Source of the DNA: Bacilli bacterium
GTDB lineage: Bacteria > Bacillota_I > Bacilli_A > RF39 > UBA660
Reading direction: 5' to 3'
Length of the DNA stretch: 64,000 nucleotides
NCBI GenBank assembly: GCA_017435485.1
Contig: JAFSEY010000007.1
Span: 51,819-115,818, forward strand
Below the pieces are notes generated by a model. That model saw nothing but the letters and a program-made list of their open reading frames with translations, did not search any database and was not told the DNA's origin. The first letter of the stretch is position 1. Every line of letters begins with the position of its first letter. Shown one piece after another: positions 13,490 to 63,857 of the stretch. The position numbers and the translations under genes are program-made.

Positions 13490-13566
13490 ATTTATTGTAT
13501 CAAATTACTTAATTAAAATCTATAAATAAGAAGAAAAATAAATAAAAAAGTACCTAAGTACCTTTT

Positions 13567-14541
13567 TTATTTTATAATTGCATCTAAAGCAATTTTTATC
13601 ATATTTTTTAAACCAGTTTCTCTTTCATCACTACTTACTATATTTTTATCAAATGGAGAATCAACAATTGTTAAAATACACCCAGCATCTTTTTTCAATT
13701 CACTAGCAATCAAAAATAGCCCAAAACATTCCATCTCTTCAGCTTTCGTATCAAAGCCATCCGGTATTTGTGATCTTAATTTATTCATATTAATATATGG
13801 TCCAAAAAAATCCATTGTAAATGAACCACCAACGTGACTATTTATATTGTTTTCTTTACTAGCGGAGATTAAATTCTCGGTTAAATTTTTTGAACTATAG
13901 GCAATGTTTTGAATACGTCCACAATACGTTTCAGCAAAATTTGAATTTGTATAGGATTTATTTGCAATAACAACATCCATTAGTTTTTGATCTTCAGTTG
14001 TTGCTCCACACGTTCCAATCCTGATAATTTTTTGAACATCATAAAAATCAAATAATTCATGATAATATATTCCTGCGCAAGGCATTCCCATGCCCGATCC
14101 CATTATGGTTACCATAACTCCCTTATAATATCCTGTATAAGCATAATTATTCCTAACGTCATTAACTAAGCGATAATTATCCAAAAAATTTTCGGCTGCA
14201 AATTTTGCTCTTAGTGGATCTCCAGGCATTAATACAAGTGGAGAAATATCTTTCTTTGGAGTTTTTATATGAGCGGTTTTAAAGCTTTCATTTTCATCTT
14301 TTTGTTCTTCTTCAATTAAGGCATCAACAAATTTTCTTTTAATGTAATTAAACTCTTCCTCAATTACAATTTCAAAACTATTTTCATCATTTTCCTTAAC
14401 TATTAAAAAATCTTCACTTACTTCAGTTTCATCCTCTAATTTTAACAGCAAATAATAAGCTTTGTTTGCTTCTTTTAAAACATTACTAACTACATAGTCC
14501 TCATTGTTTTCTAATGTTATAACTTCTCCTTTTTCTATCAT
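13567..14541 (-). CDS. deoD: Fusion protein: N-terminal UPF0473/DUF1292 domain joined to a DeoD-type purine nucleoside phosphorylase
   Basis: Residues ~1-90 match the acidic DUF1292/YrzB pattern (ITLENNEDYVVSNVL...AYYLLLKLEDE...). Residues ~95-324 are colinear with DeoD (MPGDPLRAKFAAE, GSGMGMPCAGIYYHEL, KIIRIGTCGA, EME). One continuous reading frame, overlapping the upstream gene by 4 nt (ATGA). Confidence 0.6.
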   Translation of the reverse strand: MIEKGEVITLENNEDYVVSNVLKEANKAYYLLLKLEDETEVSEDFLIVKENDENSFEIVIEEEFNYIKRKFVDALIEEEQKDENESFKTAHIKTPKKDISPLVLMPGDPLRAKFAAENFLDNYRLVNDVRNNYAYTGYYKGVMVTIMGSGMGMPCAGIYYHELFDFYDVQKIIRIGTCGATTEDQKLMDVVIANKSYTNSNFAETYCGRIQNIAYSSKNLTENLISASKENNINSHVGGSFTMDFFGPYINMNKLRSQIPDGFDTKAEEMECFGLFLIASELKKDAGCILTIVDSPFDKNIVSSDERETGLKNMIKIALDAIIK

Positions 14542-16145
14542 CTAATCATTCCCTTTCCAAATAAACTTGTCTCTTCAAACTTATAAAACCCTTCTGTGTA
14601 TCCATCAATATTACTAAGGACAACAACAGGTATTCCTCCCTGGCTTATATAGTAATTATATTGATCATCATCAGTAACATAAAACAATTCATTATTATAT
14701 AATTTTATTATAACAGCTTTAATACTTCTATTTACATTATTATTATAATATGGCTCTATTTTATTATTTCCATAATAAGCATCGAACATGTTATTATAAA
14801 TAAATGCATTTTCATTTACATAGAATGTATTTGAAAAGATTTTTACATTTTGGTTTGTTACGTTTTCTGAAATTACAGTTGTACTTGTCTCAGGTGGAAC
14901 AATAACACTTTCAGTTAAATTGGATTTCGTTTCTATATTCATTTCTGTACTTTTTTGAGGTTTTTCAAATATATTTGAAATACTTTTAGCTGCATAGTAG
15001 GATGACGATATTGATAAAATAGTTGCCACAATCAAAGGTGTCGTTTTTTTTAAACTACTTTTTATTTTTTTAATATCCATTTCACTTTTTTTCTTTTTAA
15101 AAAAATTGACAATTTTGCGTGATTTTTTTTCTTCTACTGGTAATACACCTTCAGAAACTAAATTATTATCAAGTTCATCCGATTTATAAAATAATTCTTT
15201 TAAATTATCGTTAATTCCCTCAGGTTTTGGACCATTATCATACTTATTTACTATGTAATCGATTTCTGCAGAAGATAAACCTTTTTGATACAAATCCATT
15301 TTAAAATCTATATTAAACTTTAGCCCTTCATCATAGTATTCTAAAAATTTATTTATTGCTGTTGGATAATTAATTTTTAGCTCATTGATTATAAAAGTTT
15401 TAAATCTTTGTTTTGTTTTTACCCAATAATCCTTATTTACATTTTGGTGAAAATATGGAATTGTGTATTCTGTTTGTTCTTTACCTGGTAGTGTTTTTTC
15501 TTGCTTTTTCGGATTTTGATCAATATCTTCAATTACATTAATTGTTTCGATTGTTTCTACATACTTTTCTCTAAAAAGCAACTCTTTTTCATATCCTTTT
15601 ATAACATCTTTATATTGTTTTTTTAAAAGCTTATTTAACTTTATCTTTTCTATTACCAACTTGTTGTATTCTTCAATATCTTTTTTATAGATACTCTTTT
15701 TACGTCCTTCAGCTGTTGTTGTTAATATAAAATTACTACTATCCAATTTTTTAGAAATTTTTTTAGAATTAAATTCAATATATTTCAATTTTTGACATAT
15801 ATCTTGGAATCTTAACAAATTTTGACCATATGAAAACCTCTGGGCAATATCTTCCCCGCTAGAATACTTAAGTTTGTTTTTTATTTCTAAAAATTCTTTT
15901 TGGTCTTCTTTCAAGGTAGAAATAAAGCAAAATAAACAGTCTTTTAAATAATTTAATTTTTCCCTATCTTCCTTTGACAAACTTTCTGACAATTTCAATT
16001 CTGCTTCAGATACAAATTCGTCATATAATTGTATAGTTTTATTTGTTGCTTCAATTCTTTCTTTTAACGTTTTTGCTCTTAACAATTGTTCTTTTTGTTC
16101 TAATGTTTGAACAAGAATCTCATTTACTTTTTGAACTTCATACAT
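14538..16145 (-). CDS. Hypothetical bitopic membrane protein: cytoplasmic coiled-coil region, one TM, Tyr/Asn-rich extracytoplasmic C-terminus
   Basis: Start set at MYEVQK (ATG 16145, SD AGGTGA 5 nt upstream); the track start is 16196. TM at LIVATILSISSSYYAA. No known domain. Translationally coupled to the DUF1292-DeoD gene. Confidence 0.4.
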   Translation of the reverse strand: MYEVQKVNEILVQTLEQKEQLLRAKTLKERIEATNKTIQLYDEFVSEAELKLSESLSKEDREKLNYLKDCLFCFISTLKEDQKEFLEIKNKLKYSSGEDIAQRFSYGQNLLRFQDICQKLKYIEFNSKKISKKLDSSNFILTTTAEGRKKSIYKKDIEEYNKLVIEKIKLNKLLKKQYKDVIKGYEKELLFREKYVETIETINVIEDIDQNPKKQEKTLPGKEQTEYTIPYFHQNVNKDYWVKTKQRFKTFIINELKINYPTAINKFLEYYDEGLKFNIDFKMDLYQKGLSSAEIDYIVNKYDNGPKPEGINDNLKELFYKSDELDNNLVSEGVLPVEEKKSRKIVNFFKKKKSEMDIKKIKSSLKKTTPLIVATILSISSSYYAAKSISNIFEKPQKSTEMNIETKSNLTESVIVPPETSTTVISENVTNQNVKIFSNTFYVNENAFIYNNMFDAYYGNNKIEPYYNNNVNRSIKAVIIKLYNNELFYVTDDDQYNYYISQGGIPVVVLSNIDGYTEGFYKFEETSLFGKGMIR

Positions 16146-16214
16146 AATATCACCTACAATTAAATTAATTATATCGTCACTAATAAAAAAAATCAATTTT
16201 TTAATTTAATAAAC

Positions 16215-16793: not shown

Positions 16794-17561
16794 TTAACTA
16801 ACTTTTATATTTTCATTATAATCGATTAAACTACTTTTGACAATAAAAGATAAATATAATTCATTATTATCAATATAAAAAGCATAATTATTATCATTAA
16901 ATAAATTGTCTAAGGTAGCTCCAATATTTATTACCTCTACTCCATTATCAATTGACTGACTCGCTTGTAAATGACTATTTACTAAGCCTTTAATTGTATC
17001 AAAATTTATATTAAATAATGTGTAAATTTCTTCATTTGATAATATTTTTCCTTTTTCAATCGAAACAATATAACTTTTTACCCCCTTTATTAAGACACCA
17101 TCATAGCAATCAAAATCATAGCTATTAATAACTAATGTAGCATATTTATTAGTTTGATAAACTTCATAATCTCTAGCTTTAGCTTGAAAAATTTCTACCT
17201 CCGGAAACATTATTTCTTTTGTTTCATCTATTGTTTGATCTTTTAAGTAAGTTACTGTGTTTCTTAAAGTATTATTTTCATTTTTTAAAGTATTATTAAT
17301 AACTTCAGCACTTTCTATATTAATTACAGGTTCCATATAAGTTATATCGGGTTCATCATTTATAGTTTCTTTATTTTCAAAATAAATATAATCTTTATTT
17401 TTATCAATTTTAATTTCTTTTTCTTCTACTTTAATTGATTCTTTAGAATCTTTTTTTGTATTATTAACTTGTCTAGTTAAAATATAACCACCTATTATTA
17501 GAGCAATTATAAATCCAAAAAAAGCTATAGCCATAAATTTGTTTTTTGTAGTTTCTTCCAT
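16794..17561 (-). CDS. Hypothetical N-terminally anchored extracytoplasmic protein (possibly DUF4163/DUF3298-like)
   Basis: One TM (FMAIAFFGFIIALIIGGYIL) and a ~220-aa extracellular domain. Occupies the position where pyrH normally sits. Confidence 0.3.
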   Translation of the reverse strand: MEETTKNKFMAIAFFGFIIALIIGGYILTRQVNNTKKDSKESIKVEEKEIKIDKNKDYIYFENKETINDEPDITYMEPVINIESAEVINNTLKNENNTLRNTVTYLKDQTIDETKEIMFPEVEIFQAKARDYEVYQTNKYATLVINSYDFDCYDGVLIKGVKSYIVSIEKGKILSNEEIYTLFNINFDTIKGLVNSHLQASQSIDNGVEVINIGATLDNLFNDNNYAFYIDNNELYLSFIVKSSLIDYNENIKVS

Positions 17562-17563
17562 TT

Positions 17564-18139
17564 TTATTCTCCTAAATAATTATTTAGTCCAGCTTCAATG
17601 TATGATCTTTTTAAATTTTTATTATACTCATTCCAATAATCTTCTTCGCTTATATTCGCCTGTAATCTTGAAGTATCAGAATCAAAATAAATTACATTAC
17701 CATCTTTGATAACTAAGAATGTTGGAGCATCTATATCAACATTACCTTCATCATCTCTAAATAAGTAGTTATTTAATTTTTCAACAATAGTCTCATAAGT
17801 TCCATTATTATCTTTACGATCATTATAAAAATCATAAAAATATATTTTTTCAATTTTTAAATTTTTTGCTATATCATTTAACAAACTCGCGTAATATTCA
17901 CTTTGTTTGCTATTTTCAAATCCCATAAAAATAAGAGCGTTACCACTATTTATCTTTTTTAAAGTTTGAGAAGCATTAATTTTCTCAAAAACGTTATCAG
18001 TAGTTAGAATATTATATTTGTGAGATATGTTATTTTCTTTTTCTTCAAGTTTGTTATAATTTTGTTTACCTATTATTATAAAAGCTATAAGAACTAAAAA
18101 TATTAAAATATATGTTACTATTTTCTTAATGTTTTTCAT
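17564..18139 (-). CDS. Hypothetical N-terminally anchored protein, thioredoxin-fold-like without a CxxC motif
   Basis: TM (IVTYILIFLVLIAFIIIG), then ALIFMGFENS...PTFLVIKDGNVIYF, reminiscent of the thioredoxin fold, but no redox cysteines. Confidence 0.3.
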   Translation of the reverse strand: MKNIKKIVTYILIFLVLIAFIIIGKQNYNKLEEKENNISHKYNILTTDNVFEKINASQTLKKINSGNALIFMGFENSKQSEYYASLLNDIAKNLKIEKIYFYDFYNDRKDNNGTYETIVEKLNNYLFRDDEGNVDIDAPTFLVIKDGNVIYFDSDTSRLQANISEEDYWNEYNKNLKRSYIEAGLNNYLGE

Positions 18140-19102: not shown

Positions 19103-20035
19103 TTAACTTAATGCACTAATTAATTCGTCTTTTTTCATAGTTGAATAACCTTTAATACTTTTTTCTTTAGCTAAAGCTTTTAAATCGGCTAAAGTCATTT
19201 TAGTTAAATCAACTTCTTCTTTTGCTTCTTCAGCAACAACTTCTTCTACTGTTTCTACTTTTTCTTCAACAACTTCAGTTACAACTTCTTTTGTTTCTTT
19301 TTTGTCTTCTTTTGTAGCTTTTTTATCTTCTTCAGTAACATAATCAACCATTTCTAGATTATTTACTTCACAAATTGCATTTGCTAATACTCCTAAAACA
19401 ACCTTAACAGCTCTAACTGCATCGTCATTTCCTGGAATTACAAAATCAACATCATCTGGATCACAGTTTGTATCTACGATTCCAAATACAGGTATATTTA
19501 ATTTACGTGCTTCTCTGATAGCATTAATTTCTTTTTTAGGATCAACGATAATTAATGCATTTGGAAGTTTAACCATTTTTCTGATTCCACATAAAACTTT
19601 ATTTAATTTTTCATATTCTTTTTTAAGTCCGATAACTTCTTTTTTAGGTAATACATCAAATGTACCATTAGCTTCCATAGCTTCGATTTCTTCTAAACGT
19701 TTAACTCTTCTTCTAATTGTACGGAAGTTTGTTAATGTTCCACCTAACCATCTTTCAGTTACATAGTAAGATTCTGATCTTTCAGCTTCTTCTTTTGCAG
19801 CTTCACTTGCTTGTTTTTTTGTACCTACAAATAAGAAAGTACCACCATTTTCAGCAATTTTCTTGATTTCCTCATAAGCTTCTTCAATTTTGTTTTGAGT
19901 CTTTTGCAAGTCGATTATATAAATATCATCCCTTGCAGTAAAAATATATTCTTTCATTTTTGGGTTCCATCTTTTTGTTTGATGTCCAAAATGAACTCCA
20001 GCTTCTAATAAATAACTCATAGAAACTACGGCCAT
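19103..20035 (-). CDS. rpsB: 30S ribosomal protein S2, with an acidic/Lys-Glu-rich C-terminal extension
   Basis: S2 core ([17 protein letters not shown]...) plus a ~70-aa KE-rich tail. Confidence 0.9.
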
Positions 20036-20480: not shown

Positions 20481-22292
20481 TCATAATTCTTTATAGGCAA
20501 TTCCTTTTACCAAAGCAGTTAAATCGTTTACATTAGGTTTACCATTACTTATTGCATCATCTTTAGTTGCTAAATTCCATATAATTTCAGAATCAGGTAA
20601 TTTATATCTTGCCGTATCTATTTTAGCAATATATGAAGCACAATAAATTACATCATTTATATCAACAGTTCCATTTTGATCCCAATCGCCAGGTTTTCCT
20701 GTAGATGATGTTGGCGGTTCTAATCCGCTTATTGCAACATTTGCAGCAGTTTTATATTCCTTATCCTCCACAGAAGCATAATTTGCAGGAATAGCAATTG
20801 AAGTAACATCATTATTAACTAATAACGGCACAGTTACCGTACCGGAAAGATTATATTTAATTTCTCCAGTTTTTAATCTAACAACTTTTTCTGCACTATC
20901 ATAATTATAATATACCCCATCACTAAAATTACCAAGACTAACTCCATCAGGTAATCTAAAAGCAACTACCGCACCATTAGCTCGACCATTTCCCTCAGTA
21001 AAAGTCTGTTCATGACTGCCTTCCTCTATTCCTTCAGCATATTCCGTATTTTTATTTTTTATAGAAATTTTTAAATCAACTTTCATTTTTCCAGTATTAG
21101 CATCAGTTCCTGTCTTAGTTGCACTAAAAGCATTAATATTCAAGTACGGACCAATACAAAATTCATTAACTCCACTAAGTCCACTAGTATCTTTCGACCA
21201 AGCATCTTCAGTGGAATCAAACTGATAAGGCGTAATACAAATTTGCTTATTTAAAAATTCTTTAGGGATTGTAATTGGAACACTAGCAGTTTCATTTATA
21301 TCTATATTAGGCTCTTTATAAACTAAATTAAAAATCAAATTGCCTTTTCTTTCTAAATTAAGATTAGTAAGAGATGAAACATTACCATATGTAGAATCTT
21401 CCGGCAATCGGATTTGTACCAATTTATTATTATATCCCGAATAATAAGACGCTTCATTTGCCAAAGTAGGACGCGCTACAGGTTTAACTAATTCTTCAGA
21501 ATAATACGTTAGGCCATCTCCAAATTGACCAGATTTTTTGAATTTAACTTTTAACGTTGCTGAATAACCATCATTTCCAGTAGTTAATGGCAAATCATGT
21601 AAATCATTTATAACTTTACCATTACTATCAGTTATAGTAATTTCCTGTCTATTTAATGATTTCATAACATTAAACGTAAGTACCTTATAGTGTTGATTAG
21701 TACTACTAAGATTAGAATAACCACTATCCGTAAAACCTTTAACATCTGCAGACATCTTTTTAAGTGTACCATACATAGTATCTTGACCCACTTCGCCAAC
21801 ATATTTATATTTCACTTCAAAAGTAGCAGTCGTCTTAGCTGGAACTTGACCTAGCCTAAATTCCAAAATTTGTGATGTTTCATTAGCTGCTACAGCTCCA
21901 TCAATATCTTCACATGATCGTAAACATTTAATAGAAACTGTAGAGACATTATCTCCAATTTTATATGTTACAGAATCTTTGAAATCCTTTGTACTAGTAT
22001 TTAAAACTCGCACAGCCTTAGGCCAAGGACGCAATTGTACATACATATAATCACTAGCTTTATCACTATTATTTTTTAATGTTAGATAAAAAACTATGTT
22101 TTCACTTTCGTGAACTGCATACTCTTTTAGCCCAAAATCAATTTCCAAATCTGCACTATTGGCAGTCATAAACTCAATATTTTTAGTTTCTGTTTCAATT
22201 TCTTTTTTACTGTTTTTAAAACCATTAATTTCACCAACATTGACAACAATTATCGATATTAACAGCAAAATAAACAATAGTTTCTTTTTCAT
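20481..22292 (-). CDS. Secreted multidomain protein with a C-terminal type-I dockerin
   Basis: Signal peptide, ~520 aa of unassigned beta-rich domains, then a duplicated Ca-binding dockerin segment: GDWDQNGTVDINDVIYCASYIAK and DDAISNGKPNVNDLTALVKGIAY (D/N at positions 1, 3, 5, 9, 12). Confidence 0.5.
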   Translation of the reverse strand: MKKKLLFILLLISIIVVNVGEINGFKNSKKEIETETKNIEFMTANSADLEIDFGLKEYAVHESENIVFYLTLKNNSDKASDYMYVQLRPWPKAVRVLNTSTKDFKDSVTYKIGDNVSTVSIKCLRSCEDIDGAVAANETSQILEFRLGQVPAKTTATFEVKYKYVGEVGQDTMYGTLKKMSADVKGFTDSGYSNLSSTNQHYKVLTFNVMKSLNRQEITITDSNGKVINDLHDLPLTTGNDGYSATLKVKFKKSGQFGDGLTYYSEELVKPVARPTLANEASYYSGYNNKLVQIRLPEDSTYGNVSSLTNLNLERKGNLIFNLVYKEPNIDINETASVPITIPKEFLNKQICITPYQFDSTEDAWSKDTSGLSGVNEFCIGPYLNINAFSATKTGTDANTGKMKVDLKISIKNKNTEYAEGIEEGSHEQTFTEGNGRANGAVVAFRLPDGVSLGNFSDGVYYNYDSAEKVVRLKTGEIKYNLSGTVTVPLLVNNDVTSIAIPANYASVEDKEYKTAANVAISGLEPPTSSTGKPGDWDQNGTVDINDVIYCASYIAKIDTARYKLPDSEIIWNLATKDDAISNGKPNVNDLTALVKGIAYKEL

Positions 22293-63614: not shown

Positions 63615-63857
63615 TCAAATATTAAAGCTATCTAAAAATGTTTTTAAAACTTTTTGGACTTCTTCTTCCGAATCAAGCTTAGAAATAAATAAATCTTCCT
63701 GACCTTCTTTTTTAATTAATTTACGCACTGCAAAATCTTCTCCTTCTACAGCGGATAGAATTAAATAATCATTATCATCTAATAATAATCTTTTTATTTC
63801 ATAATATTCTTTTCCGTCTTCTAATGTAACAACATTTATTTTTACGTCATCTTGCAT
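63615..63857 (-). CDS. UPF0473/DUF1292 family protein (YrzB-like)
   Basis: 80 aa, acidic: INVVTLEDGKEYYEIKRLLLDDNDYLILSAVEGEDFAVRKLIKKEGQEDLFISKLDSEEEVQKVLKTF. Confidence 0.6.
   Translation of the reverse strand: MQDDVKINVVTLEDGKEYYEIKRLLLDDNDYLILSAVEGEDFAVRKLIKKEGQEDLFISKLDSEEEVQKVLKTFLDSFNI

Follow-up and report, generated by a model that had tools for sequence, protein, structure and literature searches.

A DUF1292-purine nucleoside phosphorylase fusion gene translationally coupled to a membrane protein gene in uncultured gut Bacilli

Introduction

The closest described relatives of the enzyme considered here are the DeoD-type purine nucleoside phosphorylases (PNPs; EC 2.4.2.1, class I NP-I). 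In a 64,000-nucleotide (nt) stretch of the genome of a "Bacilli bacterium," hereafter the window (assembly GCA_017435485.1, contig JAFSEY010000007.1, positions 51,819 to 115,818 of the forward strand), we analyzed a gene that joins a DUF1292 domain in frame to a DeoD-type PNP and whose start codon overlaps the stop codon of a gene for a 535-amino-acid (aa) bitopic membrane protein, here called X. Residues 89 to 324 of the fusion protein share all phosphate-, ribose-, and base-site residues with the DeoD enzymes; the fusion differs from them in carrying an 88-residue N-terminal DUF1292 and in having a coupled partner gene.

DUF1292/UPF0473 proteins (PF06949, the YrzB type of Bacillus subtilis) combine a beta-rich fold and a C-terminal helix with an acidic composition, and the N-terminal domain of the fusion shares these features. 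In the fusion, however, the domain is attached to an enzyme instead of standing alone at about 80 aa, and it belongs to a subtype that follows X-family genes. We take the housekeeping copy of DUF1292 to be the one in the ruvX/mltG neighborhood. No study addressing the function of DUF1292 or YrzB came up in text searches; one paper only locates a gene beside ruvX, and another lists yrzB as a "putative anti-sigma factor."

AMP nucleosidase (Amn) provides a precedent for an N-terminal accessory domain on the PNP/UDP fold, but the N-terminal domain of the fusion is unrelated to it, and phosphorylase chemistry appears to be retained in the fusion. PNP-fold domains with accessory domains also serve as effectors in some defense systems. 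Effectors of the CBASS/Detocs type share the PNP/UDP fold and an accessory domain with the fusion, whereas the fusion has an intact phosphate site, a housekeeping locus and orthology, and no PADLOC match. The C-terminal domain of X may be compared with the SH3b and GW domains (InlB GW, AtlE R repeats, NlpC/P60, and endolysin cell wall-binding domains), yet it has no Pfam SH3_3, SH3_5, or GW match, no sequence similarity to these domains, and no relative among PDB sequences. It also contains extra helices and belongs not to a hydrolase but to a bitopic protein that has a large coiled coil in the cytoplasm. Text searches returned no report of such a PNP fusion, and neither this fusion and its obligatory partner nor the X family and its pairing with DUF1292 appears to have been described.

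Results

The fusion gene arose once and is accompanied by X

The fusion gene occupies 13567..14541 on the minus strand and, read from its ATG, encodes 324 aa; the product is deposited as MBQ9834078.1, annotated only as "purine-nucleoside phosphorylase" in a "Bacilli bacterium" metagenome-assembled genome (MAG). An in-frame DUF1292-DeoD fusion had been proposed by a sequence-only reading of this DNA, and it is real: no stop codon or frameshift separates the two domains, the linker has no Met, GTG, or TTG codon able to start a separate PNP, and full-length counterparts are found elsewhere. In a search of 5.8 billion proteins, 19 clusters of 317 to 328 aa span the whole query at 52 to 100% identity; different samples underlie the NCBI, ENA, and Logan assemblies that contain them. 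From the 20th match on, the hits are plain DeoDs of 235 to 248 aa. A close-range scan of 185,579 species-representative genomes returned one full-length fusion, in the goat-cecum MAG RGIG1752, and the nearest plain enzymes in that scan belong to uncultured Bacilli, "Tenericutes," and "Mycoplasma sp. CAG:956." Apparent N-terminal extensions in further genomes (L025, L087, and others; L and P numbers denote loci and proteins throughout) were rejected as tblastn spill-over, the ORFs (open reading frames) there being plain DeoDs of 234 to 243 aa.

A neighbor-joining tree of PNP domains places all 19 fusions in a single clade free of plain enzymes. The sister group includes P0022, a plain 239-aa DeoD whose gene lies immediately between frr and yqeG-yqeH and is accompanied by neither X nor DUF1292. 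This position, together with the tree, indicates that the fusion gene is the positional ortholog of the housekeeping deoD and arose once. Within the fusion clade, the PNP domains diverge to 59% identity and the N-terminal domains to 21%, and no reversion to separate genes was seen. At every fusion locus examined (the window, L001/L011, L004, L005, L006, L007, and L092/L093), an X gene lies directly upstream of the fusion, overlapping it or 1 nt away, while none of 79 plain-deoD loci has an X, core, or DUF1292-like ORF within 5 kb. Thus, the gene pair that had been singled out as unusual in the window recurs in other genomes, and the 535-aa gene is not routinely unlinked from the fusion. The fusion clade, its synteny, and its single origin are established.

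The PNP half is an ordinary DeoD

The PNP domain (residues 89 to 324; 13570..14277, minus strand), delimited by NCBIfam, Pfam, and PDB alignment, is complete and of the hexameric DeoD class. It scores above the cutoff of the NCBIfam model NF004489 (237.4 versus 230 bits, residues 89 to 323), narrowly misses the TIGR00107 equivalog model (219.0 versus 232.25 bits), matches Pfam PF01048, and aligns end to end with the solved hexameric DeoD PNPs of Escherichia coli, B. subtilis, and Trichomonas vaginalis. By the offsets of the PDB alignment, H91, G107, R111, R130, R174, and T177 correspond to E. coli His4, Gly20, Arg24, Arg43, Arg87, and Ser90, and E269-M270-E271, D294, and R307 correspond to Glu179-Met180-Glu181, Asp204, and Arg217. 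The mapped phosphate-binding and catalytic residues are invariant or nearly so in an alignment of 120 homologs, and the intact phosphate site argues that the fused enzyme is a phosphorylase.

The AlphaFold2 (AF2) model of the fusion has a mean predicted local distance difference test score (pLDDT) of 92, with values mostly between 93 and 98 in the PNP domain and between 85 and 91 at residues 241 to 260 and 291 to 310. In Foldseek comparisons with 1ecp, 4d8v, and 2isc, the PNP model gave E values of about 1e-28, target-normalized TM-scores of about 0.9, and root mean square deviations of about 2.2 Å. No other PNP-family ORF occurs within the 64-kb window. Judged from its sequence and position, the PNP half is the housekeeping deoD of this organism, with a hexamer and phosphorolysis predicted. 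The housekeeping-like character noted at first inspection is therefore borne out by the score above the NF004489 cutoff, the invariant catalytic residues, and the plain deoD at the same position in the sister lineage. In solved structures of DeoD-type PNPs, the chains are extended at the N terminus by about 20 residues (chain offsets), presumably expression tags, which we count as a sign that an N-terminal extension is tolerated.

The N-terminal domain is a divergent DUF1292

Residues 1 to 85 of the fusion form the DUF1292 domain (14287..14541, minus strand), assigned by family-level homology and the AF2 model, and are followed by a flexible linker at residues 86 to 95. The model shows five strands and a long helix (residues 61 to 85), with pLDDT mostly between 86 and 91 and 79 at residues 71 to 80. 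The linker has a pLDDT of 62 and the whole fusion a predicted TM-score (pTM) of 0.73; the two domains do not pack confidently against each other.

Taken alone, residues 1 to 88 of the window's own protein give no match to Pfam DUF1292 (PF06949). Among the orthologous N-terminal domains, 16 of the 19 match PF06949 at an E value of ≤1, and five of nine scored singly exceed the gathering score of 24 bits (24.8 to 30.4 bits), including the nearest relatives, P0003 and P0004. An hhalign comparison of the N-domain profile with stand-alone DUF1292 proteins gave a probability of 98% (E = 3.1e-13, 74 columns). PDB sequence searches with the same profile returned only noise. By this family-level evidence, which we regard as settling the assignment, the N-terminal domain is a divergent DUF1292.

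A stand-alone DUF1292 paralog of 80 aa lies upstream of ileS in the same window (63615..63857, minus strand) and is not part of the module. It had been called from the letters alone; the ORF falls below the Pfam threshold (19.7 versus 24 bits), but the profile built from the 19 fused N-domains supports the call (E = 7.6e-8, 25.7 bits), and residues 1 to 88 of the fusion are 30% identical to it. Only four homologs of this ORF were detectable in the word-indexed search of 5.8 billion proteins, and it is thus highly divergent. Its upstream neighbor runs off the end of the window.

Gene X encodes a modular protein of variable size

Gene X (14538..16145, minus strand; ORF reading) encodes the 535-aa bitopic protein and is translationally coupled to the fusion gene; the product is MBQ9834079.1, a "hypothetical protein" of the same MAG. 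The two genes, both on the minus strand, which the sequence-only reading did not specify, overlap as first read in an ATGA at 14538..14541, in which the TGA of X takes up 14538-14540 and the ATG of the fusion 14539-14541. Sequence reading also places a Shine-Dalgarno-like AAAGGGA about 9 nt upstream of the fusion start, inside the 3' end of X, and the last codons of X (GKGMIR) carry the Shine-Dalgarno sequence and start of the fusion gene. All related loci have the same overlap or a 1-nt gap at this junction. The X frame can be extended mechanically to a TTG at 16196 (552 aa); we place the start at the ATG at 16145 because the orthologs all begin with MY[ED]V and a Shine-Dalgarno AGGTGA (16150..16155, minus strand) lies 4 nt before it.

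From its N terminus, X comprises a cytoplasmic coiled-coil region, assigned by homology (residues 1 to 235; 15441..16145, minus strand), a "core" domain (residues 236 to 318; 15192..15440, minus strand), a single transmembrane segment preceded by a Lys-rich stretch (residues ~366 to 388; 14982..15050, minus strand; hydropathy and an AF2 helix), and a C-terminal domain with a compact, putatively SH3b-like predicted fold (residues 441 to 535; 14541..14825, minus strand), which is predicted to be extracytoplasmic. The coiled-coil region carries a conserved AEGRKKxIY motif found in about 20 X-family members, and its residues 74 to 182 align with the N-terminal region of P0136, described below, at 36% identity (E = 1e-13). 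In the AF2 model, the core is a four-helix bundle (helices 3 to 19, 26 to 38, 44 to 52, and 57 to 67 of the modeled fragment) with pLDDT of 92 to 97. The transmembrane segment is weak in the window, with a 19-residue Kyte-Doolittle maximum of 1.26, but clear in orthologs (1.66 to 1.85); values elsewhere in the family rise to 2.8. The coiled-coil, transmembrane, and Tyr/Asn-rich layout given by the sequence-only reading was thus right, and the AF2 models add to it the core helix bundle and the compact outer fold.

Close homologs of X number only five, at 42 to 45% identity, where the accompanying fusions are 73 to 78% identical. X belongs to no Pfam, NCBIfam, PADLOC, or PHROG family, the PHROGs yielding one marginal coiled-coil match; profiles of X and of its C-terminal domain gave only noise against PDB sequences, and a metagenome scan with the alignment of the SH3b-like domain gave no match.

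The size of X varies widely within the fusion clade. Coiled coil, core, transmembrane segment, and SH3b-like domain are all present in the window (535 aa), in L001/L011 (526 aa), and in L005 (468 aa). X of L092/L093 (251 aa) and of L007 (at least 210 aa, at a contig start) consists of the core and the C-terminal domain with no transmembrane segment, and in the 148- and 149-aa X proteins of L004 and L006 the core is the sole part kept. The membrane part of X is dispensable; in some lineages X is no more than a soluble core protein of 148 aa. Core domains occur only in the fusion clade, and X genes paired with a stand-alone DUF1292 lack them. That all lineages of the clade, even those with the shortest X, have kept the core suggests that this domain is what counts for the fused enzyme. 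A motif resemblance (LGF..VD.I..F..G.KP) had made the core a candidate IreB-like domain. This was rejected: no core-containing protein matched Pfam IreB, and the one faint match to IreB came from an unrelated paralog, within its SH3b-like domain.

At three loci, X-family genes precede DUF1292 genes where no PNP is attached

A profile of X running from the core to the C terminus, searched against 1.84 billion representative proteins, gave 104 matches at 50% clustering, nearly all of which cover only the transmembrane segment and C-terminal domain. The latter always stands at the extreme C terminus, with a strong transmembrane segment 80 to 110 residues before it, and ten family members tested have no Pfam domain above threshold. 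Many of the proteins end in LGGxxR or KRGxxR, encoded by GGAGG or AAGGGA plus AGATGA, that is, a ribosome-binding site and the overlapping start of a downstream gene. The tail peptides are conserved because the same codons supply the Shine-Dalgarno sequence of the next gene and the AGATGA in which stop and start overlap. The GKGMIR of the window (14541-14560, minus strand) and the KRGxTR and LGGxxR tails of P0136-P0220 belong to the same tail class.

In three loci, an X-family gene adjoins a DUF1292 gene with no PNP attached. In L091, P0136 (589 aa) is followed by an 84-aa DUF1292 gene that overlaps it by 4 nt and passes the Pfam threshold at 29 bits; the window X shares with P0136 the N-terminal cytoplasmic region as well as the transmembrane segment and C-terminal domain. 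In L094, P0160 (1228 aa) is followed, with a 1-nt overlap, by an 83-aa DUF1292-like gene. In L096, which was found from the DUF1292 side, a gap of 1 nt separates a DUF1292-like ORF from the X-like gene before it. Against the profile of the fused N-domain, the DUF1292 proteins scored 46.7 (L091), 39.6 (L094), 25.7 (the stand-alone copy of the window), and 19.9 bits (L096); hence, those of L091 and L094 are closer to the fused domain than is the window's own stand-alone copy. These data indicate that X plus DUF1292 is a preexisting cassette, seen in three unrelated loci without a PNP, and such pairing explains how the fusion arose.

Further features of the X family were seen at these and other loci. 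The X-like gene of L096 (2809-4252) appears to be broken into three ORFs that overlap or adjoin, one each for the coiled coil, the transmembrane segment, and the C-terminal domain, which may reflect assembly frameshifts or genuine fragmentation. L094 (2712-7954) has tandem X paralogs of 373 and 1228 aa before its DUF1292 gene, and L095 (191-5085) has tandem paralogs of 416, 535, and 632 aa followed by a terminator; such arrays suggest a multigene family of surface-anchored proteins.

Signals and neighborhood of the locus

The gene order around the module is rpsB (with Rho_N), tsf, two ORFs of no assigned family, frr, X, the fusion, a yqeG-type HAD phosphatase gene, a yqeH-type GTPase gene, and mutL. 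The G+C content (GC) is 27% for the window and 25 to 29% for the genes from rpsB to mutL, and the fusion matches its neighbors. A terminator-like A-tract, hairpin, and T-tract overlaps the fusion stop codon (13540..13572, minus strand; RNA fold), with a folding energy of -9.4 kcal/mol and a z score of -3.07 versus shuffles. A promoter-like TTGATT-17-TATAAT with 10 of 12 matches lies in the frr-X spacer (16168..16196, minus strand); it is a weak candidate only, such sites being as frequent in the region as shuffling predicts.

Ribosomal protein S2 (19103-20035, minus strand) has a Rho_N domain at its C terminus (residues 276 to 309; Pfam PF07498, 40.6 bits), an architecture also present in L001, L004, L005, and L006. 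In many Firmicutes, pyrH lies between tsf and frr. In the window this interval (16794-18139, minus strand) holds two ORFs of 191 and 255 aa with no Pfam match, each with an N-terminal hydrophobic segment, and in related loci it holds one to three different ORFs, likewise of no assigned function. The goat-cecum lineage (L001, 4946-6340, and L011) has an extra 464-aa secreted protein gene between frr and X, with no counterpart in the window; the L001 protein has a faint Cleaved_Adhesin match and a C terminus that is dockerin-like by eye only. Farther upstream, a 603-aa ORF (20481-22292, minus strand) has no Pfam match, and in L004 and L006 a DEAD/ResIII helicase of 1468 aa precedes similarly placed proteins of 598 to 600 aa that contain a Sigma70_r4 domain.

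Discussion

The simplest history of this locus is that a cassette came to lie between frr and deoD and that its DUF1292 gene was then fused to deoD. The cassette would have comprised two genes, one for an X-family bitopic protein and, coupled behind it, one for DUF1292, and a single in-frame fusion would have taken place in the common ancestor of this small clade of uncultured gut Bacilli. We propose that the DUF1292 domain docks onto the cytoplasmic portion of X and thereby holds the PNP on it, and we give this proposal a probability of about 0.5. The ATGA coupling would favor coordinated synthesis of X and the fusion protein, and the flexible linker would let DUF1292 bind X while the PNP keeps its normal oligomer and its phosphorolysis. 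The docking site on the X proteins of the fusion clade is probably the four-helix core. In lineages with a long X, including that of the window, the PNP may be held at the membrane on an X whose outer SH3b-like domain would bind the cell wall, and in those with a short X, the complex would be soluble. Membrane tethering of the PNP may follow for the long-X lineages, and the cell may gain from the arrangement, for example, by salvaging purines near the site where nucleosides are taken up. We count three observations for functional coupling: X always adjoins the fusion, the core is kept where X shrinks to 148 aa, and the X tails encode the Shine-Dalgarno sequence.

Several observations weigh against docking. 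The pairing is not universal, as the array of three tandem X paralogs in L095 ends in a terminator and has no DUF1292 gene. X of L007 (P0134) has the SH3b-like domain but no transmembrane segment, which clouds the "outside" topology. The observation of a lone PNP gene covers the 64-kb window only. Finally, all of the fusions stem from one event, and the co-occurrence of core and PNP fusion is therefore phylogenetically a single observation.

That last point also counts in favor of a neutral history, in which the stop codon of DUF1292 was lost upstream of deoD in a single read-through event and the two halves keep independent functions, DUF1292 acting with X and the PNP in salvage, their link being meaningless. 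Such a fusion would arise easily from the ancestral order X-DUF1292-deoD, the PNP domain is entirely ordinary, and the low-confidence linker (pLDDT 62) and the absence of confident interdomain packing (pTM 0.73) suit two halves that ignore each other. Nonetheless, the fusion was kept while the PNP fell to 59% and the N-domain to 21% identity, with no lineage reverting, and X was remodeled from 535 to 148 aa, yet the tight coupling and the clade-specific core were always retained. A hexamer tethered to an X partner would, moreover, change the stoichiometry and valency of DUF1292, which is unlikely to be neutral. We therefore consider neutrality possible but clearly less probable than docking. 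A regulatory role, in which DUF1292 and the X core gate or allosterically control the PNP as the N-terminal domain of AMP nucleosidase does, seems doubtful to us. The extension joins the enzyme a few residues before His91, the equivalent of E. coli His4, and the core occurs only where the PNP is fused and is never lost from X. In E. coli PNP, His4 contributes to the active site of the neighboring subunit. However, the AMN models score 20 to 22 bits against cutoffs above 260, so that no sequence relation to the AMP nucleosidase N-domain is seen, no contact with the active site is supported structurally, and the same DUF1292 subtype pairs with X where no enzyme is attached.

The unusual pairing with a membrane protein had also led the sequence-only reading to hint at a nucleotide-degrading effector, such as an anti-phage or toxin nucleosidase acting on ATP, dATP, or similar under a membrane sensor. 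This hint did not hold up, and we consider such a role very improbable: PADLOC matches neither the fusion nor X nor the short X, the equivalents of Gly20, Arg24, Arg43, Arg87, Ser/Thr90, and Asp204/Arg217 are invariant, and the protein scores above the curated DeoD cutoff and is a positional ortholog of plain deoD. In addition, the locus (rpsB-tsf-frr...yqeG-yqeH-mutL) is a conserved translation and ribosome-assembly neighborhood rather than a variable island, and the GC of the fusion gene equals that of its neighbors. An assembly or sequencing artifact joining two genes might be suspected because the source is a MAG, but it is refuted by the same uninterrupted architecture in 19 clusters from independent assemblies, down to 52% identity.

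Docking thus remains the reading that we prefer for this locus. Its extension to the whole family, in which DUF1292/UPF0473 proteins, near-universal in Firmicutes, are cytoplasmic adaptors that dock onto envelope-spanning, wall-anchored X scaffolds and here hold a purine-salvage enzyme at the envelope, is a speculative and, in our estimate, unlikely generalization. If it were true, the PNP complex of this clade would be tethered to the membrane, and its location or its activity would be linked to the cell wall or to the uptake of nucleosides. If docking itself is true, the fusion would be a rare example of an envelope protein physically recruiting an enzyme of core salvage; a neutral fusion would amount to a lineage-specific curiosity in uncultured ruminant-gut Bacilli.

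The enzyme is ordinary and holds little surprise for an enzymologist; the value of the finding lies in the association, which is a useful guilt-by-association lead. X represents a previously unannotated protein family, which comprises about 100 clusters at 50% identity and for which Pfam has no model. The association also provides a first contextual clue to the function of DUF1292. Since DUF1292 is conserved across Firmicutes, the fusion and the recurrent coupling to X offer a testable partner hypothesis for this orphan family.

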